A program made the translations under genes and the position numbers. Shown here one piece after another: positions 23,047 through 35,009 of a DNA stretch of 64,000 bases (position 1 is the first letter of the stretch; every line of letters begins with the position of its first letter). The DNA lies in the NCBI GenBank assembly GCA_965223665.1, contig OZ245011.1, forward strand, positions 3,648,001-3,712,000, written 5' to 3'. The notes beneath the pieces were generated by a model. The model saw nothing but the letters and a program-made list of their open reading frames with translations, made no database searches and was not told the DNA's origin. The DNA comes from Nitrospinaceae bacterium (GTDB lineage Bacteria > Nitrospinota > Nitrospinia > Nitrospinales > Nitrospinaceae).

Positions 23047-23119
<73 letters not shown>

Positions 23120-23177: not shown

Positions 23178-24647
23178 TTATGGATTAAAATCCTTAATGA
23201 GATGAATCACACTCGCATCCATCATCTCCATCAATGGTCCAGGATACAAACCAATACCCAATACCAGGAAAGCCAATGGAATCAACGCAGCAAGTTCCAA
23301 ATTCGATAAATCCGGGAGCATTTTTGCGGTTTCTGTTTTAGGCTCCCCTAATGCCACCCTTTGGAGCATCCACAACATATAAGCTGCAGCTAAAACAATA
23401 CCGCCCATAGAGATAAGAACTATTGGAAAATTGACATAGGAAGTTCCTACCAGTACTAAAAACTCACCAATGAAATTGCAGGTACCTGGTAGTCCAAAAG
23501 CAGCGACTGAGAACAAAAAGAAAAATGCAACAAATCTTGGCATGGGTTTATGCAATCCGCCGTAGTCCGAAATAGCTCGACTGTGAGTGCGGTCATATAA
23601 TTGTCCAACAGCAATAAACAAAGCGGCCGTAGTAATTCCATGGTTGAACATTTGCAAGACGGCTCCCTGAATGCCCTGATTATTAAACACAAAAATTCCG
23701 AGTGTGACAAAACCCATGTGAGAAACTGAAGAATATGCCACGAGTTTTTTAAGGTCGGATTGAGCTAAAGCCAGATAACCCCCATATATAATGGCTATGA
23801 CTGATAACCACAAAGTGTATGGTGCGAATTGTGCCGAAGCCTCCGGAAACATTGGCAAACAAAAACGTATAAATCCATAACCTCCCATTTTTAAAAGCAC
23901 ACCAGCCAGAATCACACTGCCAGCAGTCGGAGCTTCCGAGTGTGCGTCAGGGAGCCAAGTATGAAAGGGAACCATTGGCATTTTGATGGCAAAAGCCAGA
24001 AAAAACGCCAGGAACAACCAGAATTGTGTAGTGGAGGAATAAGTTTGTTTGGATAAAACCAATAGATCGTAGGTATGTCCCCCATTTAGATAAATGCCTA
24101 ATATACCCACCAGTAGCAGTAAGCTTCCAGTTAGACTGTACAAAACGAACTTTAGTCCGGCAGCTATACGATTTGGTCCTCCCCATAGAATAATCATAAA
24201 ATACATGGGAATCATTGTTACTTCCCACAACATGAAAAACAGGAATAGATCCAGAGCGGTAAAGACCACAATCATGGCCCCTTCAACTAACAATATTAAC
24301 GAGAGATAGGCTCTTACTCGATTGGTGATTCCCTTCCACGAGCAAAGGACACAAATTGGGCAAAGTAGAGCTGTGAGCATCACTAATAGAATACTGATGC
24401 CATCCACACCAACTGCGTACTGGATATTAAAAGTAGTCATCCATTCCACGCGTTCCACGAACTGCATGTCTTTTAGAGAGGGATCAAAATTCCTCCAAAG
24501 AATTAGCGAAAGGAAAAACACCACCAATGTGATGCACAAGGCAATTCGTCGAATCCATTCTTCATTACGCACGAAAGCCAGAATGACGATTCCTAAAAAA
24601 GGAACGGCAATCATCCCGCTAATCAGATGATCCATTAAAATAGCCAT
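23178..24647 (-). CDS. NuoM-like antiporter-like membrane subunit
   Basis: VGVDGIS, WEVTMIPMYF, KMPMVPFHTWLPDAHSEAPTAGS, AYSSVSHMG, FIGEF. Confidence 0.9.
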   Translation of the reverse strand: MAILMDHLISGMIAVPFLGIVILAFVRNEEWIRRIALCITLVVFFLSLILWRNFDPSLKDMQFVERVEWMTTFNIQYAVGVDGISILLVMLTALLCPICVLCSWKGITNRVRAYLSLILLVEGAMIVVFTALDLFLFFMLWEVTMIPMYFMIILWGGPNRIAAGLKFVLYSLTGSLLLLVGILGIYLNGGHTYDLLVLSKQTYSSTTQFWLFLAFFLAFAIKMPMVPFHTWLPDAHSEAPTAGSVILAGVLLKMGGYGFIRFCLPMFPEASAQFAPYTLWLSVIAIIYGGYLALAQSDLKKLVAYSSVSHMGFVTLGIFVFNNQGIQGAVLQMFNHGITTAALFIAVGQLYDRTHSRAISDYGGLHKPMPRFVAFFFLFSVAAFGLPGTCNFIGEFLVLVGTSYVNFPIVLISMGGIVLAAAYMLWMLQRVALGEPKTETAKMLPDLSNLELAALIPLAFLVLGIGLYPGPLMEMMDASVIHLIKDFNP

Positions 24648-24771
24648 TTTAGTATCCTCCTGCCTACGAAATAAACAATCTCTCGGATTTTTATATTAGC
24701 TCATGAAAAATGAAGTAAGGCAAATTGCAACCAGATTCTTTTATTATAACTGGGGTACAAATCGGAAACGT

Positions 24772-26868
24772 TTAAACCAAAAAATACAATAGACCAGTCA
24801 TTGCCACTAACCAAAATATCATTACTAATAACTGATGTTGGATAGTACGGGATTCCATTTCTCGTAGCATTTGTCCTGCCGCAACGCGTTCTGCTACTTT
24901 CCCAACCCTTTGATCCAACCAGTGAATGTCAATAATTCGCCATAACTTCCCGGCCAAATACACAGTAATGTTGGCCAAAGAATGGATAAAATGATCTATT
25001 ACCCTTATATCCATAAAACGCCACAACCACCTGGCAAAACTCACAGTATAAGTGGCCATAGATCCGATGAAACCATCAATAACTTTTACATCAACATTTC
25101 GCCACAACCAATGTGCGACCCTAATAGAAGGGTTTACAATAAAGGCCTCATAGAATTCATCAAAATACCCTTTATTCCAAAACAAGACATACAATCGACG
25201 GTTTTTTACGTTGGCATGTGAGGCTTGAGGTTTGGTTTGAGAATGTTTTGAGTATGCATAGAACCATCCTGCTACTGCTACGCCGAGAGAAACTACCAGC
25301 CAAAAAGAAAAGTTTTGTTCAACTGGGCCTTTCCCCAAATCAACTCCTGGAATGGTTAAGGCAGGAGCAAGAAAATTGGCAAACCAACTCCAAAAAAATG
25401 TCAATAACCCACCTACCAAAACCGTAACCAGAAAAAGGCCAGATAAAATTGACATATTTAAAAACTGAGGCCTAATTGATCGCATTTCCAAACTTTGTTT
25501 TCCTGAAGCAGGTAAGTACGTCTTTGGACCATGAGCAAAAAGCGAGATGATGCTTTTAAAAATATATTGAGAGGCGATAAATACAGTAATCAAGCCAATG
25601 ATTTTGAATCCTATCGAGGCTGACGCAAACCCTGTGATTCCCCATAAATATTCATACGATCCGGAAAAAAGTACTAACGGCGGGAGTAAAGCCAATAAAA
25701 AAGCCCCGCCATATAGGATACCCATGCCCTCATTGGTATGAGGTTCATGATCCTCATGCCCAAGTCCCTGTTCCACCGATCGCAAACTATTACCCGTAGA
25801 CAGAAAAAAGAAAGCTTTGTAGCACCCATGAGCAAGAAGATGAAAAATGGCCACTGCAAAAGCACCCAAACCGCAAGCCATGACCATGAATCCAATTTGA
25901 CTAATGGTGGAATAGGCTAAAGACTTTTTGATATCAGATTGAGGCAAGGAAACTATTCCGGCAAATATAGCGGTTGTAGCCCCAATTATGGCAATGAACG
26001 TCATGGCGGATGGAGAAAGGATAATCAATGGGCTCAATCGTACCAACAAAAAAGGACCTGCATTTACCATAGTAGCGGCATGAATAAGGGCTGAAACTGG
26101 AGTCGGAGCTTCCATCGCCCCCGGCAACCATACATGAAACGGTATTTGTGCTGACTTTCCCATAGCTCCCATAAAGAGGAAAAAAGGAATAAGAGTTAAG
26201 GGATATATATGAAATTCCAAGCCCATCCATCCTAAGATATTGATAGTATGGTTTTGCATGCTTTCAGCCTGGCCAAGAATAGTCGGAATATCCAGAGTTC
26301 CAAAGGTAAAGAAGGTTAAAATAATGCCAAAACTTAATCCGACATCCGCGATTGAGTTTACGAGAAAAGCTTTGGTGGCTGCGCGGCCAGCGGAAGGTCT
26401 TTCCGCTGCGTGAGAAATCAAAAGATAGGAACAGATTCCCATGACTTCCCAACTTATCAATAGCATCAAAAGGTTGCCACTCATAACTAACAAAATCATA
26501 GAAAAAGTAAACAACGCAATGACAGCAAAAAAACGATTATAGGTTGACTCTCCAATCATATAACGAGAAGAATATACATGCACAACCCCACTTACTCCGG
26601 TGACTAAGAGTAAAAGCAAAACAGTCAGTTGATCAACAAACAGAGTTAGATCAATGGTCAGCGAACCAGAGTGAAACAGTCGGTAAAGGGAAATGGTAAA
26701 CGATCCATTTTTTAACACTTCAATGAATGCGGCAACAGATAACGCAAAGGAAATTCCAATGGCAGGAATTCCAATACGGTGACCGTTCTCCCCCCAACGA
26801 CGTCCCCCAAGTAAAAGAATGAGAGAAGCTAGAAAAGGAAGCAAAGGAATGAGGACGTAAATTGCCAT
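24772..26868 (-). CDS. NuoL/MrpA/DabB-like antiporter-like subunit with extended lateral helix
   Basis: SWEVMG, KSAQIPFHVWLPGAMEAPTPVSALIHAATMV, AYSTISQIG, HLLAHGCYKA; C-terminal 3x27-aa repeat. Confidence 0.9.
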   Translation of the reverse strand: MAIYVLIPLLPFLASLILLLGGRRWGENGHRIGIPAIGISFALSVAAFIEVLKNGSFTISLYRLFHSGSLTIDLTLFVDQLTVLLLLLVTGVSGVVHVYSSRYMIGESTYNRFFAVIALFTFSMILLVMSGNLLMLLISWEVMGICSYLLISHAAERPSAGRAATKAFLVNSIADVGLSFGIILTFFTFGTLDIPTILGQAESMQNHTINILGWMGLEFHIYPLTLIPFFLFMGAMGKSAQIPFHVWLPGAMEAPTPVSALIHAATMVNAGPFLLVRLSPLIILSPSAMTFIAIIGATTAIFAGIVSLPQSDIKKSLAYSTISQIGFMVMACGLGAFAVAIFHLLAHGCYKAFFFLSTGNSLRSVEQGLGHEDHEPHTNEGMGILYGGAFLLALLPPLVLFSGSYEYLWGITGFASASIGFKIIGLITVFIASQYIFKSIISLFAHGPKTYLPASGKQSLEMRSIRPQFLNMSILSGLFLVTVLVGGLLTFFWSWFANFLAPALTIPGVDLGKGPVEQNFSFWLVVSLGVAVAGWFYAYSKHSQTKPQASHANVKNRRLYVLFWNKGYFDEFYEAFIVNPSIRVAHWLWRNVDVKVIDGFIGSMATYTVSFARWLWRFMDIRVIDHFIHSLANITVYLAGKLWRIIDIHWLDQRVGKVAERVAAGQMLREMESRTIQHQLLVMIFWLVAMTGLLYFLV
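24880..25122 (-). repeat. Three tandem 81-nt (27-aa) repeats in the NuoL-like C-terminal amphipathic helix
   Basis: The Trp codon of LWR falls at 25102, 25021 and 24940, a period of exactly 81 nt. Confidence 0.9.
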
Positions 26869-26876
26869 AATTTCCC

Positions 26877-28346
26877 TTAAAGACCTGGTGGTAGAGCTTG
26901 ATTTAACAACATTTGAACAATGGGAGCACTGAATATTCCAAGAATCATAATTGCGGCGGACGTGATTCCAAGAGTCAGTTTAAATGACAGTGGAATTGCA
27001 CCAAATGTTCCGTCGGATGGAGTTGATGATTGACGGAAAATCCGCTCGAAGAGTTTGACGAAATAGGCAAGCGTCAAGAGCGTAGAAAGTAGTACTGCAG
27101 CGACTGAAAAATAATTGCTTTCATCCAACGCTCCAAGAATAATGTACCATTTGCCAAAAAAACCTCCGGTCGGAGGTAGGCCAATCATGCCCAAGGCCAT
27201 AACCACTAAAGACCCGGTAAGCCAGGGAGCTTGTTTTCCTACACGCCCTATATCATCAATAGTTCTGACCCCATAATGGCAAATTGCTACACCGGCTAAA
27301 AAAAACAGGGCAGCCTGCATAACAGCATCGTTCAATAAATAAAATACTCCTCCGGCAAATCCCGTTGGGTTTCCTTGACTGATGCCAATCAGAATGATGC
27401 CAATGTGCGAAATTCCTCCATAAGAAAACATCATTTTTATATCCCGCTGGGCCAAGGCCAGGCTTGCACCTATGACGGCAGCTAAGGCACCAACAACTTC
27501 CATCAGAACCAAAATAGGAATATTGTAAATAACAATCGATGCATTTAAGACCCAATAGATTATTCTGACCCACGCTAGAAGTGCTACCTTGGTGAGGAGA
27601 GGAGCCAAAATAGGTGAAACAGAATCAGGAGCATAAGTGTAGGCATCCGGCATCCAAGCATGAAACGGTACCAGGGCCATCTTGATTCCCAGGCCAATAA
27701 ACATAAACAGCAGTCCCCCCACTAAAGCTTTTGAACCTAATAATAAGGGAAGTCTTTCGGCTATATCCGCCATATTCAGAGTGCCGCTCACCGCATAAAG
27801 ATAACTAACCCCTAGAAGATAAAGGGAAGCGCCGAGTGTTCCTAAGATAAGATAACGGAATGCGGCAAACAGAGCTCTTCCGCCTGCGACACCGACAAGT
27901 GCGTAACTTGAGATAGCCGCAACTTCTAAAAATACGAATAGATTGAATAGATCCCTGGCGAAAACAATGCCGGTTAAAGCTGATATCAATAGCAAGATCA
28001 ACGTATAATAATGAACGATCCGGCCACCCAGAGCCTTGGGTGAAGTTGTTCCTGTAAATATCACACCCAGCAAACCCAAAGCACTCAGCAATACTAACAT
28101 GACACTCGCTAATCCATCAGCCACCCATTCAATGCCGAGGGGTACTGTCCAACCGCTAAAAACATAACGCACCTCTCCATGATTAGTGACGTTGTAAAGA
28201 TTCCAAATTGAGACAAGAACCATAACTGCTAGAATTACCAAAGAAATTCTGTGGCTCCAGTGACGATGTTTTAAACAAACCACTGGCATAGAAATGGCGG
28301 CGAATAATGGAAGTAAAAATAAGATTGCAGGAAGTTGGTGATTCAT
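26877..28346 (-). CDS. mrpD: Mrp antiporter subunit D-like
   Basis: FSGWTVPLGIE, DLFNLFVFLEV, GTLNMAD, PFHAWMPDAY, GLPPTGGFFGKW. Confidence 0.9.
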   Translation of the reverse strand: MNHQLPAILFLLPLFAAISMPVVCLKHRHWSHRISLVILAVMVLVSIWNLYNVTNHGEVRYVFSGWTVPLGIEWVADGLASVMLVLLSALGLLGVIFTGTTSPKALGGRIVHYYTLILLLISALTGIVFARDLFNLFVFLEVAAISSYALVGVAGGRALFAAFRYLILGTLGASLYLLGVSYLYAVSGTLNMADIAERLPLLLGSKALVGGLLFMFIGLGIKMALVPFHAWMPDAYTYAPDSVSPILAPLLTKVALLAWVRIIYWVLNASIVIYNIPILVLMEVVGALAAVIGASLALAQRDIKMMFSYGGISHIGIILIGISQGNPTGFAGGVFYLLNDAVMQAALFFLAGVAICHYGVRTIDDIGRVGKQAPWLTGSLVVMALGMIGLPPTGGFFGKWYIILGALDESNYFSVAAVLLSTLLTLAYFVKLFERIFRQSSTPSDGTFGAIPLSFKLTLGITSAAIMILGIFSAPIVQMLLNQALPPGL

Positions 28347-28720
28347 TCTAATTTTTCAAGAATATTTTGTTCGTCAAGGCTTCCATATTTTCGATAGATA
28401 GCTGCGCACAGGGCTAATCCTACGCCCGTGGTCGCCACGCCGACCACAATAGCAGTCAGCGTCAAGACATGAGGTAATGGATTTGCGTAAGTGGCCGCTT
28501 GCACAGGCTCCGAGGTGGACAAAAGTACAGGAACGGTTGCGCCCTTCTTCGCACTGATAGATACTAGAAAAAAAATCACGCTGGTTTGCACTAAATACAA
28601 CCCGATAAGTTTCTTTACAAGATTGTATCTTGTAACCATTATATAAAATCCCCATAGAAAAAGGATAACGAACGTCAAAAAATTAGGTCGCTGAAGAACG
28701 GCCAAAAATGCATCAACCAT
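28343..28720 (-). CDS. mrpC: Mrp subunit C-like
   Basis: NLVKKLIGL, NPLPHVLTLTAIVVG; probable start MVDAF at 28720. Confidence 0.9.
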   Translation of the reverse strand: MVDAFLAVLQRPNFLTFVILFLWGFYIMVTRYNLVKKLIGLYLVQTSVIFFLVSISAKKGATVPVLLSTSEPVQAATYANPLPHVLTLTAIVVGVATTGVGLALCAAIYRKYGSLDEQNILEKLE

Positions 28721-29165
28721 TAATTGAATCCTCAATAATTTCTTCGGCAGATAAGCTGAATACAATAGAAACGGCTGTTACCGCAACGTCTATTGCCACG
28801 CCGACTTGTGTGAGCACAATTCCCAATGATCTTCGAGAAGCAGTTTCAAGGCCTGGGATTTCTAAATTTGCATAATTGAGAAATTCTCCACCACCGATCA
28901 TACATAAGCCTCCCACACCTGCGTAAATCAACATTCCAACTCCATCTCCATGTAAAACACTTTTAGCTATTTGACCCCTGGAGCCATCATGACCAAATAT
29001 CAAAACCGATAAAATCATTCCTGTGCCCAAAATCACCCCACCCACAAATCCACCTCCTGGTCCGAATTGACCGAAAAACAATACATAGATTCCAAAAATT
29101 TGGACCACAGGAATCAGAAAGCGGCCTAGAGTTTGAACAATAATGCTATCGTGTTGGCGTATCAT
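28713..29165 (-). CDS. mrpB: Mrp subunit B (MnhB domain)
   Basis: GQFGPGGGFVGG; probable start MIRQH at 29165, coupled to the upstream stop. Confidence 0.88.
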   Translation of the reverse strand: MIRQHDSIIVQTLGRFLIPVVQIFGIYVLFFGQFGPGGGFVGGVILGTGMILSVLIFGHDGSRGQIAKSVLHGDGVGMLIYAGVGGLCMIGGGEFLNYANLEIPGLETASRRSLGIVLTQVGVAIDVAVTAVSIVFSLSAEEIIEDSING

Positions 29166-29683
29166 TATGTTTGCCTCCTGAGAAGTAGAGCGCAAGCAAT
29201 ACCCGCTGCAAAAATCACCACAGTTTCGATCATCGTATCAAGTGATCGATAGTCCATCAGTACTGAAGTCACAACATTCGGAGTGTGAGTATCCTGATAA
29301 CTTTGTTCGAGATAGGTAGGTGAAATATGAACACTCGCTGGAGAATTCGGGTCCCCATAACCTGGAAGATCATTTGCGGCATAGAGTAATAGAAGCCCCA
29401 AAAGAGGAAAAACAATTAAGGTTGTTAAAGAAGGCGGAGGGCGCCGGAGTCGAGTGTCTTTGGGAGCAGTTCCAAATAGAGTCAATAGAAATAGAACGGT
29501 AGCTAATCCCGCTCCAACAACGGCTTCTACGAAGGCGACATCTACAGCTCCCAGCCATCCCCAAACCAGCGCGAGGAAAAAGCTGTAAGAACCCAATAGC
29601 AGAATGGCACTCATTAAATCCTTAACGAGGATGGCACCAGCGGCAGTAGCTAAAAGAAGTAGGAGTAAAGGAATTTCTATCAT
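29165..29683 (-). CDS. DUF4040 plus MrpB N-terminal (MbhD/E-like) subunit
   Basis: AVDVAFVEAVVGAG; PNVVTSVLMDYRSLDTMIE. Confidence 0.85.
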   Translation of the reverse strand: MIEIPLLLLLLATAAGAILVKDLMSAILLLGSYSFFLALVWGWLGAVDVAFVEAVVGAGLATVLFLLTLFGTAPKDTRLRRPPPSLTTLIVFPLLGLLLLYAANDLPGYGDPNSPASVHISPTYLEQSYQDTHTPNVVTSVLMDYRSLDTMIETVVIFAAGIACALLLRRQT

Positions 29684-29979
29684 GAGGATTCCCTTCGCCA
29701 GGGTTTTAAACCAGATCGGAGGGCTGCGCGCACCGTTGCATGTGCAATGCCAGGATTTAAAATATACAACAATACCAACACTACCAGAATTTTTAGCATA
29801 TTTTTTCCCAGTCCCTCATGCAAAGCAATTCCGATTAACATCAAAAAGGCCCCAATAGAATCTGTTAATGATACGGCGTGGGAGCGACTAAACACATCAG
29901 GTAATCGAATCACACCGATCGCCGCAACAATAAGAAAAAATAAACCTGCAATGATAAAAATAATGGAAAGTATATCCAT
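29680..29979 (-). CDS. mrpG: Mrp subunit G
   Basis: GVIRLPDVFSRSHA; NPGIAHA. Confidence 0.9.
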   Translation of the reverse strand: MDILSIIFIIAGLFFLIVAAIGVIRLPDVFSRSHAVSLTDSIGAFLMLIGIALHEGLGKNMLKILVVLVLLYILNPGIAHATVRAALRSGLKPWRRESS

Positions 29980-29980
29980 G

Positions 29981-30247
29981 CTATGGAAGCCCCTTTTCTT
30001 CCAAATATTTTGCCACGGCCAGCGCTCCTACTAAATTTAACAGAGCATACCCGGTGGAGATATCAATAAACATATCGACTCGATCAAAATAAATACCAAT
30101 AACAATAAGCAGAATAATTGCTTTTGTGGAAATGCCATTGAGACCCAACACACGGTCAAAAATTGTGGGTCCCCGCAGGACACGATAAAGATAGGCGCCA
30201 ATTAGAATAGCCAGCAATATTATTACGTAAAAGAGAAAAGGCTTCAT
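29981..30247 (-). CDS. mrpF: Mrp subunit F
   Basis: YRVLRGPTIFDRVLG; AKYLE. Confidence 0.9.
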   Translation of the reverse strand: MKPFLFYVIILLAILIGAYLYRVLRGPTIFDRVLGLNGISTKAIILLIVIGIYFDRVDMFIDISTGYALLNLVGALAVAKYLEEKGLP

Positions 30248-30750
30248 AAATCTGGCTCTACGTCCTTAAAAATATTTGCAATTTTATTTTCCATCTGTTT
30301 ACTTTCAACATCTTCACTTAATTCTTTATCCATTGCGTGAACGATAAGGTTATTGCCGTCAACTTCGGCAGTTATCGTTCCTGGAGTTAAGGTAATGGAA
30401 TTACCAAATAGAACCACGGCCCCGTGGTGACGCAATTTTGATTCCACAGAAATCAAATGAGGAGCAATTGGAAGTGAAGGATGCAAAATGAGTTTTGACA
30501 AATGCAGGCCGCTTTGTATGATTTTATAAAAAAGCCAAGGTATATAGAGGAGGATTCTAAACCACAAATTAAATTTAGGAACAAAAGGCGAATGACCAGA
30601 ATTGATCCAGGTCACTAAGAAAGAAAAAATAATTCCCAAAAAAAGGTGAATCCATTCAAAACTGGCAGATAATAAAACCCAAAACAAAAACAGTGAAAGG
30701 GTTTTTAAAAACAGGAATTTTGAGGATATTGGTCGAGATCGAATTGCCAT
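30244..30750 (-). CDS. mrpE: Mrp subunit E
   Basis: NSITLTPGTIT; LIVHAM. Confidence 0.9.
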   Translation of the reverse strand: MAIRSRPISSKFLFLKTLSLFLFWVLLSASFEWIHLFLGIIFSFLVTWINSGHSPFVPKFNLWFRILLYIPWLFYKIIQSGLHLSKLILHPSLPIAPHLISVESKLRHHGAVVLFGNSITLTPGTITAEVDGNNLIVHAMDKELSEDVESKQMENKIANIFKDVEPDL

Positions 30751-30871: not shown

Positions 30872-33800
30872 TTATAAAACATCAACTTTTTCCCAGGTAG
30901 CATTTGGATTGTACCGATGAAACTCAAATTTATGGCAATCCAAAGCTACAAGATTTAACCATTCATTATGAAACAACTGTTGAAGAATCGCATGCTTTTT
31001 AATGATGGATGAGATCACACTTGGTATTTGTTCGATGATGGCTAAAAGTCGCATCGGTTCATGATAGTGTATTTTCCCATTATTAACTGTTTGTAAAGGA
31101 AATCCCATTTGCAAATCACTTTGGGTTCCCAGCATCATCCCAACACCCCCAACGACATTGTGTAACACCTTACTCGCACTGCCAAACTTATAGGGATCGA
31201 CAGCTGAAAAATAATAACCAGTATTTATCCATTCCCCAACAATTAACGGTGCGGTCATAATTTTTTCAAGAATAGCCCCTTCGGGATCAGCAATAGGATC
31301 ATAAGAATGCAAGAAAACTCGACCTCCTAAATCTAACCCTTTAGTCAGTTTTCGTCTTCCAATGAGAAATGCGCCATTGCCCGCTAACCCCCATTCTGGC
31401 CGAGTATTTGCCCAATCGCAACTTCGCTCGTCTACATGAGCAAAGGCCTCCTTTGGAGAAATTTTAGTTGGCGCACTGGGAATGCGTTGACATCTTTCAA
31501 GAGCCTGCTTTGCGCCAGCTTCTTCGAGATCTCTTCTTAAGGCCTGAATATCTTCTTTATGAGAAGCGGGGAATTCCTCTAGATCGTAAAACTCGACTCG
31601 ATCTGTTGTCGTATTATGTTTACCGGGAAGGAACCAGGTGTCGTCGGGAATAGGCAATCCTTTTTCATTGAGAATATGACGAACCTCAGGTTCATTCGCC
31701 ATTGCAGCAAAAACACGAGCATTTGCATCTCCTGGTCTTCCACCGCATGCTCCGCAATCCAAGGCCCCATAATAAGGATTATTATCTGTCTCACTACCGT
31801 GGCCACAGAGGCAAACTAACCGAGCAAAATTTTTAGTAAGCCCCATAGCACGCAAGCCATTTTCGACAAATGTGGCTCGTTCCTCAAGAGAAAAACCCTG
31901 TGAAAGCCCCTCAGGAATCCCTTCGGCATTCACTTCTCCAATTTCCGGGTCTTGTGGATTCGACGGAGTGGAAATTAAGATTTGAGTTGGAACCCTTTGT
32001 GTTAACCAACCCTCAATAGAGGAGGTTATTCCACGAAATGTTTTTTGGAATAAGGTCTTGCCTATTAATCCTAAACTAAAAAAGAACCCCATCACATCAA
32101 TCACCATCATCGACCCGATAGGATGATGTTTTAAATCGTGAAAAATATGGTGTCCCAGTTGGGTCCAGCGAGTACCAGATGAATATTTTTCTAACGCCGT
32201 TCTTTCTCCCAGCCGAGGTGATTCAGTCACCGCATGATTGGGTGTCAATAAAACCGGACATAAAGCGTCTCGAAGATTTCCATCAAAAGCTTGATGGCTA
32301 ATGGGAATTCCAAAAAATCCAGCAAACCCGAAGGTTTCATAAGGGCCTTGGGCTTCAAGATGACGACGAAACGATTCAGAACGTACATCAATACAAAAAA
32401 CCAGTTGAGCATGGGGGCGGATTTCCAATTCAGGTATCGTCCCGTGATGCGCAAAAATATTTTTTAGAATTTTCTGTCGAAAGGAATCTTCATATGCTTC
32501 AATCCATACCTTTCCATGCTGATCAGCAGGAAAGTGATCTAACCATTCTAATAACTTATGGGCATCAGTGATTGAGAGGGCTCCAACTTCTTTTGGAGAT
32601 AACTCAAGAAACTGTGCCAAATGAAATAATCGCCAAGCATGTCGACATTTCACCTTTTTGGTAGGATCTACGGACTGGGTTCCCTGCCCAATGCGTTGGT
32701 GGTATTCTTCGGATCGATTATTCCAATATGCGGTTAGTGCAGAAACAGTTCCGTCAATTCCCCATTCTTGTTTGCATTTGAGGTTGGTTAACTCTACTTC
32801 ATAGAATAAGCGCACTGCAAGATATTGTGTGGTGTCAATTGGGTGTTTTTGCTGTGCATGGTACATAGGGTGTTCCCCTAACCACCTTATGTATCTTGTC
32901 CAGCCGGGTAATAGCGAAAGTTGTCTTGAGAGATAGTCTTTCCATTGTTTCTTAGGAATTTCGAGTTGGTGTAAACTGGAATCAATTGCTTCCTCAGGAA
33001 CGGTAGAGAGACTTCCAACTTTTTGAGAAAAATCTTTTATTCCCAGAAGCTGACCAGAAAAATCTTTCTGTGCGAGGTTTTTCCATACTTGATAGAAACC
33101 TTCTTCCCGGCCAGGCATTTTCCAGCCAGCCAACCCTTCATCAACAAACGCCGTCACCCATTTTATAAGTATATTGTTGATTTGTTCAACCACTTCACCA
33201 TCAGTCAAGTCATCAATCCAATCACTGAGGGTTCTAAGTGACGGTAAGGAAATTGGTAAAGGCGTTTGCGAATCTGAATCTTGATGTGTATGAGATAATC
33301 CATTTGAATCCGTCAAACCTAAGGCGACACATACGCCTTCCCATAAACTTGACAGGTAAGTCTCTTCTGGATATTCCAGATGCTGTTCACATTCCTGGAT
33401 GGTTTTTTCAATAATTGACTTTCGGGAATCTTCAGAAAGATCCCGGCGAAACTGTTTAGTAGCACCTCCACCATTAAATTCCCAATCGAGTAGGGAAAAT
33501 GGCAATTCCTCTATGCCAAAAAGAAGGTGGATCTGCCAAACATCCTTAGCTGAAATTTTTCGGTCTCCAACCTCAATAAAAACTGTTTCATCAAAGTGAG
33601 GTCCCACTCGGGAAAAAGCACGCTCAAAATTTTCCTGGGTAATACGTCCATTTCTGTAAAATTCACGGTACTCATCATTTGTGAGATATCCATTTCCTCC
33701 AAGGAGGGTCTTGCCTTTTCGAACAGCTTGATCAAAAGATAAATATTCCAATCCATGGATCGGATTCTGAGCGACCATTGTCCTCATTGGCCAAAATGGC

Positions 33801-33886
33801 GCAATTGGCTCACTGGCGTCCAATATTAATTGCCGAACTTGATCAAGATCTTCTGGAGAAAGGGACTTCACAAAATTAGTACTCAT
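30872..33886 (-). CDS. dabA: DUF2309 / DabA (MpsB-like) beta-carbonic-anhydrase-like subunit of an inorganic carbon transporter
   Basis: IAPFWPMRTMVAQNP, FCIDVRSESFRRHLE, GHGS, LDCGACGG (predicted Zn ligands C/D/H/C), HNTTTD, RPEWGLAGN, MTAPLIV, HEPMRL. Confidence 0.93.
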   Translation of the reverse strand: MSTNFVKSLSPEDLDQVRQLILDASEPIAPFWPMRTMVAQNPIHGLEYLSFDQAVRKGKTLLGGNGYLTNDEYREFYRNGRITQENFERAFSRVGPHFDETVFIEVGDRKISAKDVWQIHLLFGIEELPFSLLDWEFNGGGATKQFRRDLSEDSRKSIIEKTIQECEQHLEYPEETYLSSLWEGVCVALGLTDSNGLSHTHQDSDSQTPLPISLPSLRTLSDWIDDLTDGEVVEQINNILIKWVTAFVDEGLAGWKMPGREEGFYQVWKNLAQKDFSGQLLGIKDFSQKVGSLSTVPEEAIDSSLHQLEIPKKQWKDYLSRQLSLLPGWTRYIRWLGEHPMYHAQQKHPIDTTQYLAVRLFYEVELTNLKCKQEWGIDGTVSALTAYWNNRSEEYHQRIGQGTQSVDPTKKVKCRHAWRLFHLAQFLELSPKEVGALSITDAHKLLEWLDHFPADQHGKVWIEAYEDSFRQKILKNIFAHHGTIPELEIRPHAQLVFCIDVRSESFRRHLEAQGPYETFGFAGFFGIPISHQAFDGNLRDALCPVLLTPNHAVTESPRLGERTALEKYSSGTRWTQLGHHIFHDLKHHPIGSMMVIDVMGFFFSLGLIGKTLFQKTFRGITSSIEGWLTQRVPTQILISTPSNPQDPEIGEVNAEGIPEGLSQGFSLEERATFVENGLRAMGLTKNFARLVCLCGHGSETDNNPYYGALDCGACGGRPGDANARVFAAMANEPEVRHILNEKGLPIPDDTWFLPGKHNTTTDRVEFYDLEEFPASHKEDIQALRRDLEEAGAKQALERCQRIPSAPTKISPKEAFAHVDERSCDWANTRPEWGLAGNGAFLIGRRKLTKGLDLGGRVFLHSYDPIADPEGAILEKIMTAPLIVGEWINTGYYFSAVDPYKFGSASKVLHNVVGGVGMMLGTQSDLQMGFPLQTVNNGKIHYHEPMRLLAIIEQIPSVISSIIKKHAILQQLFHNEWLNLVALDCHKFEFHRYNPNATWEKVDVL

Positions 33887-33917
33887 ATTTAGAGCGACAG
33901 TTGTCTATCTCAGAAAC

Positions 33918-33974
33918 AAAAAAAACCAACCGTCCCTCTATATCTACAATGAAATAGTTAGTAATACGGTTGGC
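33918..33974 (-). terminator. Leader terminator upstream of dabA
   Basis: GCCAACCGU...ACGGUUGGU stem running into an 8-U tract, about 30 nt before the dabA start codon. Confidence 0.75.
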
Positions 33975-33979
33975 TTGTG

Positions 33980-34036
33980 TTTTGGCTTATGCTGCAGTTA
34001 ACCTCGCAAACTAAACGAGTCGAACACCCTGTAGCC
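33980..34036 (-). ncRNA. Candidate Na+-I (DUF1646)/nhaA-I-type cation riboswitch aptamer
   Basis: CAGGGUG-UUCGA-CUCGU(UUAGUUU)GCGAG-GUUAACUG-CAGCAUAAGCC; GGGUG, AGGUU and 3' AGCC as I recall them for this RNA class; directly followed by a terminator and Mrp genes. Confidence 0.55.
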
Positions 34037-34424
34037 TAAACAAAAAACTGAACTCAAGCCTAGAGTGCCTATGTCTTTTTTTTTGATAACCAAAAGACAG
34101 TTTAAGTCTAGTCTTGATATGAAAAAAAAACAATAGTTTTTACAATTTTTTATTACCGCGTTTTTAAGATCAAATTTTTTCTTTGAAGAATTCATAAACA
34201 TATATTAATGGTCTCATATCCCCCTCACAAATAATTGAATAGCTTATAGAAGTAAATTTTTTCAGGTAGAGTTTAAGGAAGAAACTGAAACTTAACTTGT
34301 GATATAACTTAAGGGAGCAAGCCGCTTTGAAAGACCGAATGAGCTGTTTCCTTCAGTGGATGCTTTAAAATGAAAAATCTGGCTACAGTCACACTGCCGG
34401 GAAATTTAATGAGGAGAGAAACTT

Positions 34425-35009
34425 ATGAATCCGGGCGAAGTGCTTGACATCTTGGTAGCGGGAAACGAGCGATACCTGAATGGTAATACCCACAAACACG
34501 ATTTTCATGCAGAACGGGCTGAACTTGCACAGAGCCAACATCCTATTGCAGCAGTGCTTAGTTGCGCGGATTCTCGAGTTGTTCCACAATTCGCGTTTGA
34601 CCAGGGTTCTGGCAAATTGTTTGTTGTACGCGTGGCGGGCAACATTGCCACCACTTATGGGATCGCATCACTTGAATATGCTGTTGAATACCTCAAAACC
34701 CCTTTGATCTATGTCTTAGGACACACATCTTGCGGAGCGGTAGATGCAGCGGTTAAAGTGGTAAAGGATGGCGCAGAGTTTCCCGGGGAGCTTCCGGAGT
34801 TAGTTTCCTCTATTGCCCGTGCGGTGGATATCACTGGGTCAAATACGGAGGAAATTTTAGGAAAAGCCGTGCAAGAGAATGTTCGATTAACCGTTTCTAA
34901 ACTAGCGGACTCGAGTCAAATTATTCGGTCGCGTATGCAATCGGGAAACCTTCGTATTGTTGGTGGAATTTACGAACTCGCAAGTGGCAAAGTTTCCCTT
35001 GTGGAATGA
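34425..35009 (+). CDS. Beta-class carbonic anhydrase (no signal peptide)
   Basis: GNERY, SCADSRV, VRVAGN, GHTSCGAV; in-frame stop just upstream. Confidence 0.95.
   Translation: MNPGEVLDILVAGNERYLNGNTHKHDFHAERAELAQSQHPIAAVLSCADSRVVPQFAFDQGSGKLFVVRVAGNIATTYGIASLEYAVEYLKTPLIYVLGHTSCGAVDAAVKVVKDGAEFPGELPELVSSIARAVDITGSNTEEILGKAVQENVRLTVSKLADSSQIIRSRMQSGNLRIVGGIYELASGKVSLVE

Follow-up and report, generated by a model that had tools for sequence, protein, structure and literature searches.

What signal controls the uptake of inorganic carbon in nitrite oxidizers, and could it be sensed by the RNA of the uptake genes themselves? The question is raised by a structured non-coding leader in a 64-kb window of a Nitrospinaceae genome (GCA_965223665.1, contig OZ245011.1, positions 3,648,001 to 3,712,000; "the window" denotes this whole stretch), where the leader is read on the minus strand upstream of dabA, the first gene of a dabA-mrp-like operon. 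Coordinates are positions within the window. Most nitrite oxidation in the ocean, in soils and in wastewater plants is due to Nitrospira and Nitrospina, which use the reductive tricarboxylic acid cycle for CO2 fixation and for which no account of carbon uptake regulation was found in the literature searched. The first-pass annotation had regarded the leader as a candidate Na+/Li+-class riboswitch with a terminator. We find that it belongs to an RNA family which neither Rfam 15 nor the papers searched contain and which is apparently undescribed. With a probability of roughly 0.7, we propose that this family acts in cis on inorganic carbon uptake genes in Nitrospinota and Nitrospirales by transcription attenuation, and that the element at 34036-33918(-) is a divergent member of it.

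A conserved leader family in Nitrospinota and Nitrospirales

The leader was conserved at 82% identity in the sister species and at 72-74% over ~270 nt in other families of the order; the match to locus L003 reached 73% over 275 nt (E 9e-42). The relatives of the DabA locus retrieved by protein search were labelled Nitrospinaceae or Nitrospinota and the more distant ones marine Nitrospirales, and among 97 loci the same element was located upstream of dabA in three marine Nitrospirales records (L057, L064, L071). The shared leader, along with a DabA identity of 55-67%, suggests that the whole unit may have been transferred between the two phyla.

Three models were used to delineate the family. 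R1, built from 13 sequences with hits counted at E<=0.01, identified one strong copy each in 11 of 120 Nitrospinota genomes (14 at the E<=0.01 threshold) and copies in 77 of the 151 sampled Nitrospirales genomes, often two or three of them 3-5 kb apart. In a sample of 151 genomes from across the phylum Nitrospirota, R2, built from 88 sequences with an aptamer-only structure, matched 20, each of which had already appeared in the Nitrospirales search; in the window's own genome (G000, 98.6% complete) it matched this leader only. R3 served as a leave-out test, as its 67 input leaders, all from Nitrospirales, precede dabB, mnhE, SulP or the second DabA type and include neither a dabA-type leader nor a Nitrospinota sequence. 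It matched 33915-34044(-) with 38.3 bits (E 6e-7), the sole significant match in the 64 kb, the next-best matches having E 0.2 and E 0.9.

Four weaker R1 matches (G067, G083, G030 and the second one in G001) and a weak second match in the window's genome (C1:4096906) were rejected as look-alike terminators, all of them devoid of the hairpin. The low-scoring matches L313 and L326 appear to be terminator only, while L282 is a partial copy. Terminators with arms near-identical to those of the dabA leader (AAAAAGCCAACCC...GGGUUGGCUUUUUU) were seen elsewhere without the hairpin, at G000:C1:4096906-4096976(-) and G001:C13:664830-664904(-). A 14-letter pattern searched in metagenomes was too loose, as it returned at least 119 stretches and, among the 80 taken as loci, a single real copy by R1 (L211).

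Several Nitrospinaceae (L010, L012, L013, L014, L032) have undergone a clean deletion of the hairpin together with the left arm of the terminator, so that UCUAGGCU directly abuts GCGGUUGGCC before dabA. This joint loss is consistent with a terminator that can be overcome only by means of the hairpin. The element of another genome (G046; L007/L108) has a shortened terminator loop, and ~200 nt of G+C-rich inverted repeats resembling repetitive extragenic palindromic elements precede its dabA.

Structure and covariation

The core consensus reads GGC-N-GUAGGGU-(covarying hairpin)-RCAGUACAAGCC. In full, it comprises (U)GGC, 1-6 nt, GUA/GUG, G-GG-U, a P2 helix of ~10 bp with a bulged G, R-CAG, UAC/CAC, AA and GCC, followed on the 3' side by AACCRG, a variable loop and CYGGUUGGCUUUUUU. 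These parts form one irregular hairpin in which P1a (GGC/GCC) is followed by a bulge of 1-6 nt opposite AA, P1b (GUR/YRC), a near-invariant internal loop of G-GG opposite CAG, and P2. The AGCC that closes P1a is at the same time the foot of the terminator (AAGCCAACCRG ... CYGGUUGGCUUUUUU). A helix CUGUGG/CCACAG, which had been used as 'P1' in R1, fits Nitrospinota but not Nitrospirales (GUAGGGU ... ACAGUAC) and was replaced by P1a and P1b.

The absence of covariation in orthologous leaders had been named at the outset among the findings that would speak against the riboswitch assignment; covariation was, however, found. Across the 88 sequences, 81.6% of the cells in the aptamer pairs were paired as compared to 73.6 +/- 0.5% in shuffles, and changes on both sides of a pair numbered 177 cells against 66.6 +/- 12.4, a value reached by none of 500 shuffles. 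All 12 pairs of P2 had double changes (one pair, for example, being CG in 40, UA in 28 and UG in 10 sequences), pairing fell to 25-44% when the partners were slid by 1-3 columns, and a 43-sequence alignment gave the same picture. The inner pair of P1b was AU in 65, GU in nine and GC in five sequences. In P1a, the deviations at columns 9-96 and 11-95 are mainly unpaired cells, and at column 12-94 the counts are 80 for CG and eight for UG. The terminator was paired in 94.7% of its cells, 6 of its 11 pairs being changed on both sides family-wide, and a run of at least four U ended 83 of the 88 members.

Besides the pairing, the letters of the core were kept in 74-88 of the 88 sequences (G16 in 85, U17 in 83, G22 in 86, G23 in 86, C74 in 86, A75 in 86, G76 in 87, G94 in 88 and C95 in 88), except for the purine position A18 (A in 67, G in 15). 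Energy folding alone recovered P1a, P1b, the loop and P2 in the aptamer parts of L124, L122, L113 and L003, whereas in the full-length RNAs RNAfold swapped P1a for the terminator.

Genes behind the element

To each copy we assigned the best blastx match within 1.5 kb downstream. Of 107 copies, 105 precede dabA, dabB (NuoL-like), mnhE (the start of an Mrp-like operon), SulP or a second DabA type, and Pfam agreed with these calls for representatives. The 99 copies found by R1 were followed by dabB/NuoL-like genes (36), dabA (28), mnhE (23), SulP (8), the second DabA type (3) or none of these (1), and the eight further copies from R2 by SulP (4), dabB (2), dabA (1) or none (1). The totals are therefore 38 for dabB, 29 for dabA, 23 for mnhE, 12 for SulP, three for the second DabA type and two for none. 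None of the 107 copies was located before nhaA-type, osmolyte or other Na+ genes.

A complete cluster in the genome G144 carries three copies, placed before SulP, dabA and mnhEFG..., respectively; in this cluster an HtrA-like serine protease gene (Trypsin_2 + PDZ; L270:8769-10310(-)) follows dabA, where dabB might be expected. The closest solved relative of the SulP protein was 6ki1_A (E 4e-23), named 'low affinity sulfate transporter' by its depositors, which we take to be the cyanobacterial bicarbonate transporter BicA. According to excerpts of PMC10880623, DAB/DAC complexes and SulP/BicA form the dissolved inorganic carbon toolkit of autotrophs, and 'Nitrospirae' carry such genes. The regulon is thus one of carbon uptake. 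In the window, dabA is co-regulated with a full Mrp-like module as part of a single operon, which suggests a DabA-Mrp supercomplex.

In many Nitrospirales loci a gene of the MpsC family (123 aa, PF10057, E 1e-36; L270:13763-14131(+) for instance) was seen divergently upstream of dabA. It adjoins dabA whether or not the RNA element is present at the locus, and no match to MpsC was found in the window's genome.

The Na+ and Li+ riboswitch classes

The first-pass annotation placed the leader in Na+-I (DUF1646), Li+-I (nhaA-I) or Li+-II (nhaA-II), a membership for which the Rfam covariance models gave no match at the leader. Rfam 15 at gathering score returned only tRNA and no riboswitch in the whole window, and nothing riboswitch-like at E<=10 in 33800-34450; no riboswitch was matched in 32 homologous loci either (12 at E<=1 and 20 more at E<=5). 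Searched at E<=10 across the window's genome, RF03071 Sodium (cut-off 40.5 bits) gave five sub-threshold matches, none at the leader, RF03057 nhaA-I (cut-off 37 bits) a single 15.5-bit match elsewhere, and RF03038 nhaA-II (cut-off 70.4 bits) no match. As a control, the Sodium and nhaA-I models each exceeded their own cut-off in one control genome. A cobalamin riboswitch (RF00174, 87.5 bits, E 2.9e-21) was observed outside the window at G000:C1:3203450-3206489 (L145: 2879-3036, minus strand).

That the leader is a member or close variant of Na+-I, Li+-I/Na+-II (nhaA-I) or Li+-II (nhaA-II) is, in our estimate, very unlikely. The resemblance of GGGUG...AGCC holds for a few letters, since the P2 consensus of Na+-I in Rfam (ggCUuCugGGGUGgGaAGcc) can be set beside the GGCUGUGGGGUG ... 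CAAGCC of the Nitrospinota leaders, but the architecture differs. The Sodium consensus consists of two separate hairpins, the second being ggCUuC-ugGGGUGg-GaAGcc with GGGGUG in its terminal loop, whereas the GGGU here lies in the internal loop of one nested hairpin, and most Nitrospirales members have the core GUAGGGU and not GGGGUG. An ON-type terminator design is common to the leader, Na+-I and Na+-II (excerpts of PMC9337991 and PMC9646797), and Mrp-type antiporter subunits are among the downstream genes. Against these likenesses stand the missing RF03071, RF03057 and RF03038 matches and an upstream hairpin that is not universal in the family.

This upstream hairpin was considered as an obligatory second domain, as in the two-hairpin layout of Na+-I, and was rejected, as the upstream hairpins vary from clade to clade and the aptamer of L285, L292, L306 and L308 is preceded by a -10-like box at a distance of ~35 nt. 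The dabA-type leaders of Nitrospinaceae and marine Nitrospirales (the window at 34055-34116(-), L002-L006 and L113-L121) have in common an extra 5' hairpin, (GG)UCAAG.../...UUGAG(CC), as well as upstream boxes that resemble promoters. In other clades the 5' hairpin is a different one (GAUGGGGCC.../...GGACCCAUC), and in some it is lacking.

The window copy

Read on the minus strand, the leader of the window consists of GGC-U-ACA-GGGU, a hairpin with the arms GUUCGACUCG and CGAGGUUAACU around the loop UUUAGUUUG, G-CAG-CAU-AAGCC, the spacer AAAACAC and a second AAGCC. The copy has the GGC, GGGU, CAG and AAGCC of the family core, and ACA and CAU at P1b, which is mostly unpaired. The hairpin, the two AAGCC copies and the U-tract terminator about 30 nt before the start codon, as described in the first-pass annotation, are all in place, and the second AAGCC does start the left arm of the terminator (33976-33966 pairs with 33933-33923). 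The idea that GGUU has two alternative partners is weak, as the first copy offers just GCCAA (5 nt) against 11 bp for the second. Taken together, Pfam, covariation, RNAfold and the leave-out model support the broader claim of a structured, conserved leader with an intrinsic terminator and riboswitch-like architecture before a dabA-mrp-like operon.

A G+C-containing stem directly followed by a U tract identifies 33918-33976 as a predicted intrinsic terminator. Its stem has 11 bp and -18.5 kcal/mol (RNAfold), and its loop of 32 nt, which holds a small inner hairpin, explains why a simple terminator scan overlooked it. The tract of eight U is separated by 31 nt from the ATG of dabA at 33886. The 194-nt leader as a whole folds only modestly better than shuffles (z-score -2.26; 7 of 200 shuffles fold equally well). 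The 30 nt linking the terminator to the ATG (33887-33917(-)) read CUGAGACAGGAAUAAGUCGCUCUAUAUG in relatives and are highly conserved even in leaders without the hairpin; the linker of the window has diverged (GAUAGACAACUGUCGCUCUAAAUAUG) and has no obvious Shine-Dalgarno sequence.

The copy also contains a 12-nt tandem duplication which is confined to the window and its sister species (L002), being found in 2 of 13 and later in 2 of 88 aligned sequences. The duplication provides P1a with an AGCC of its own, so the hairpin and the terminator can coexist in this copy.

Proposed mechanism and alternatives

In the mechanism that we propose, the folded hairpin including P1a, presumably stabilized by an effector, would take the AGCC away from the terminator. 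Deprived of the G-C pairs adjoining its U tract, the terminator would let RNA polymerase read through, so that the outcome would be an ON switch. As to whether the RNA itself binds the effector, be it a small molecule or an ion, which would make the leader a riboswitch, we consider the odds about even. As the regulon serves carbon uptake, carbon demand is a more likely signal for the effector to report than Na+. A bolder proposal, which we regard as speculative and rather unlikely, is that the family would be the first RNA sensor of inorganic carbon status, binding bicarbonate or a metabolite that accumulates at CO2/HCO3- shortage and turning on DAB, the Mrp-like module and SulP.

Several observations weigh against this attenuation mechanism or against its operation in the window. 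The conservation of P1a and P1b in sequence over the whole helix would be equally expected of a protein-binding site. As P1a hardly varies, covariation cannot confirm it and it rests on position and energy only, and the alignments behind the pair counts were fitted to our own models, which biases them towards structure. A simple scan detected no promoter-like site on the minus strand of the window. The window copy has A and C at positions 16 and 17, where G occurs in 85 and U in 83 of the 88 sequences, and its P1b (ACA opposite CAU) is mostly unpaired. Its minimum free energy structure (RNAfold) holds P1a, formed with the first AGCC, and the terminator together, as does that of L002 with its duplicated AAGCC; the mutual exclusion of hairpin and terminator was seen in the canonical L003, L113, L122 and L124 but not in these two.

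These features raise the possibility, compatible with the family assignment and one that we hold to be a real though minor one, that the window copy is a decaying or re-purposed relic, acting as a constitutive attenuator or as a plain hairpin and terminator. Apart from the coexistence of P1a with the terminator and the departures from the near-fixed G and U, model R2 flags P1b and two positions of P2 as non-canonical, the P2 of the window being weaker, and the leave-out score of 38.3 bits ranks 12th of the 15 dabA-type leaders tested (range 26-76 bits). However, two species of the genus that differ in their point changes (L001 and L002) both retain the duplication and an intact terminator, which argues for continued selection; a strong constitutive terminator before a 10-gene operon would be costly, and the GGGU and CAG loop letters are intact.

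An RNA of a new family that senses Na+ or another alkali cation, resembling a Na+ riboswitch without homology to it, appears doubtful. All four gene types encode cation-coupled membrane systems (Mrp-like subunits, NuoL-like DabB, SulP), the aptamer is small as in ion-sensing classes (the Rfam Sodium and nhaA-I models have 55 positions), and ON logic would suit the induction of a Na+ exporter; on the other hand, the genes constitute an inorganic carbon toolkit, as outlined in excerpts of PMC10880623, and not general Na+ homeostasis, with no copy before the Na+ genes mentioned above. Inducing Na+-coupled importers at high cytoplasmic Na+ would not be obviously useful, and many matched stretches have 56-68% G+C, from which we take them to be non-marine Nitrospirales. 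The suggestion that the leader lends independent support to Na+ coupling is unsupported. The hairpin could also be the site of an antiterminator protein which itself senses the signal, comparable to a ribonucleic antiterminator (RAT), and this we rate as unlikely. P1a and P1b are conserved in sequence and not just in pairing, as in hairpins recognized by proteins, the element is confined to one regulon, and Nitrospirales encode a small, conserved protein of the cytoplasm in mpsC, divergently upstream of dabA. Yet the window's genome has no MpsC match and keeps the element, which weakens MpsC as the partner of the RNA; no candidate RNA-binding regulator was identified, and a near-invariant internal loop beside a freely covarying helix is the usual pattern of riboswitches. 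That the conservation reflects a DNA-level operator or promoter element or a leader-peptide attenuator, and not RNA structure, seems extremely improbable. The 540-bp divergent intergenic space beside the carbonic anhydrase gene would allow for such an element, and some relatives (L003, for example) have a 14-codon open reading frame across the right arm of the terminator, as judged by eye. This is opposed by the compensatory changes in all 12 P2 pairs and in 6 of the 11 terminator pairs, the fixed orientation, the U tract in 83 of 88 members and the location of the element downstream of promoter-like boxes in relatives (by eye), while in the window the short reading frame has no start codon.

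Features of the locus

The features of the leader and of the genes around it are compiled in Table 1. The divergent space between dabA and the carbonic anhydrase gene, which is listed as context without implying co-regulation, measures 540 bp. A tRNA gene (RF00005, 71.7 bits) was located at 23047-23119(+), just past the last gene of the dabA-mrp operon and on the opposite strand.

Table 1. Leader elements and neighbouring genes in the 64-kb window
Feature	Position	Strand	Basis
Aptamer-like irregular hairpin	33984..34036	-	sequence; alignment to models R1, R2, R3; family-wide P2 covariation
P1a 5' strand, GGC	34036-34034	-	sequence
Bulge U	34033	-	sequence
P1b 5' strand, ACA (family consensus GUA/GUG)	34032-34030	-	sequence
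Conserved GGGU	34029-34026	-	sequence
P2 hairpin GUUCGACUCG/CGAGGUUAACU, loop UUUAGUUUG at 34015-34007	34025-33996	-	sequence
CAG, then CAU, then AA	CAG 33994-33992; CAU 33991-33989	-	sequence
P1a 3' strand, GCC, within the first AAGCC copy (33988-33984)	33986-33984	-	sequence
First unit of 12-nt tandem duplication, UAAGCCAAAACA	33978..33989	-	family alignments; model R2 reads it as an insertion
Second AAGCC copy, start of terminator	33976-33972	-	sequence
Predicted intrinsic terminator	33918..33976	-	RNAfold; family-wide pairing
Terminator left arm, AAGCCAACCGU	33976-33966	-	pairs with ACGGUUGGUUU
Terminator right arm, ACGGUUGGUUU	33933-33923	-	pairs with AAGCCAACCGU
U8 tract	33925-33918	-	sequence
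Clade-specific 5' hairpin domain, helix CAAGACUAG (34116-34108) with CUAGGCUUG (34063-34055)	34055..34116	-	alignments, by eye
A/U hairpin enclosed by the CAAGACUAG/CUAGGCUUG helix	34099-34092 with 34079-34072	-	alignments, by eye
dabA, 1004 aa, first gene downstream of leader	30872..33886	-	PF10070 DabA, E 5.9e-262
Nine Mrp/complex-I-like membrane subunit genes after dabA, same strand	23178..30750	-	Pfam matches; ORF (open reading frame) coordinates
Order after dabA: mnhE, mnhF, mnhG, MbhD/E-like, mnhB, NuoK-like mnhC, 489-aa antiporter subunit, 698-aa NuoL-like, 489-aa NuoM-like		-	Pfam
Beta-carbonic anhydrase, 194 aa, divergent	34425..35009	+	PF00484 Pro_CA, E 2.2e-36

Comparison with known systems

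The mechanism is of a known kind, that of a terminator/antiterminator leader, while the RNA family and its regulon appear undescribed. No literature linking riboswitches with DabA/DUF2309, Nitrospira or bicarbonate/CO2 was found among the papers listed in a search that left the supplementary motif lists of PMC5737381, PMC9337991 and PMC9646797 outside its scope. One RNA element precedes almost all DAB, Mrp-like and SulP units of these genomes and so defines, from sequence alone, a carbon uptake regulon that offers a testable handle on the controlling signal. More than 100 examples were found, they covary and their regulon is coherent, which makes the family a well-supported addition to the orphan riboswitch candidates. 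If the effector were bicarbonate or a metabolite of carbon status, it would fill a gap noted in the 2024 opinion article PMC11259077, excerpts of which state that no gas-sensing RNA is known; if it were Na+, the family would represent a further, structurally independent solution to Na+ sensing and would bear on the ion coupling of DAB.

Among the cation riboswitches, Na+-I (RF03071) resembles the new family as a small aptamer followed by a terminator that competes with an aptamer helix to give an ON switch (excerpts of PMC9337991), in a G-rich stretch (GGGU here, GGGGUG in Na+-I) framed by ggCU ... AGcc in the Rfam consensus, and in its placement before membrane cation-transport genes. Apart from the lack of a covariance-model match, it differs in that its conserved letters are those of the P1 base and the P2 terminal loop, in two hairpins joined by a linker (same excerpts), whereas the new family is one nested hairpin with the conserved letters in an internal loop and a covarying hairpin where Na+-I has a loop, and its regulon is carbon uptake only. 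The nhaA-I (RF03057) and nhaA-II (RF03038) RNAs are likewise cis-regulatory leaders of cation transporter genes, but their models do not match the new family. Excerpts of PMC9646797 liken the nhaA-I consensus to the two-hairpin layout of Na+-I and describe rare Na+-II variants as using terminators, as the new family does; these variants were detected solely among Deltaproteobacteria, where they precede genes whose protein products are of unknown function.

The likeness to attenuators of the BglG/LicT type is one of logic only. The RAT of these systems is an imperfect but conserved hairpin that overlaps, on its 3' side, with a terminator's 5' arm, and stabilization of the hairpin leads to read-through. 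They occur in other taxa with another regulon, and no CAT/PRD-type antiterminator gene was seen here, where none was searched for. As for the regulon itself, cyanobacterial NdhR/CcmR and CmpR control mrp/mnh genes together with CO2-hydrating complexes and Na+-dependent bicarbonate transporters, the SulP-type BicA among them. The genes behind the new RNA element are of the same mix; control in cyanobacteria is exerted by LysR-type DNA-binding proteins, whereas here it would be exerted by an RNA structure in the 5' leader.

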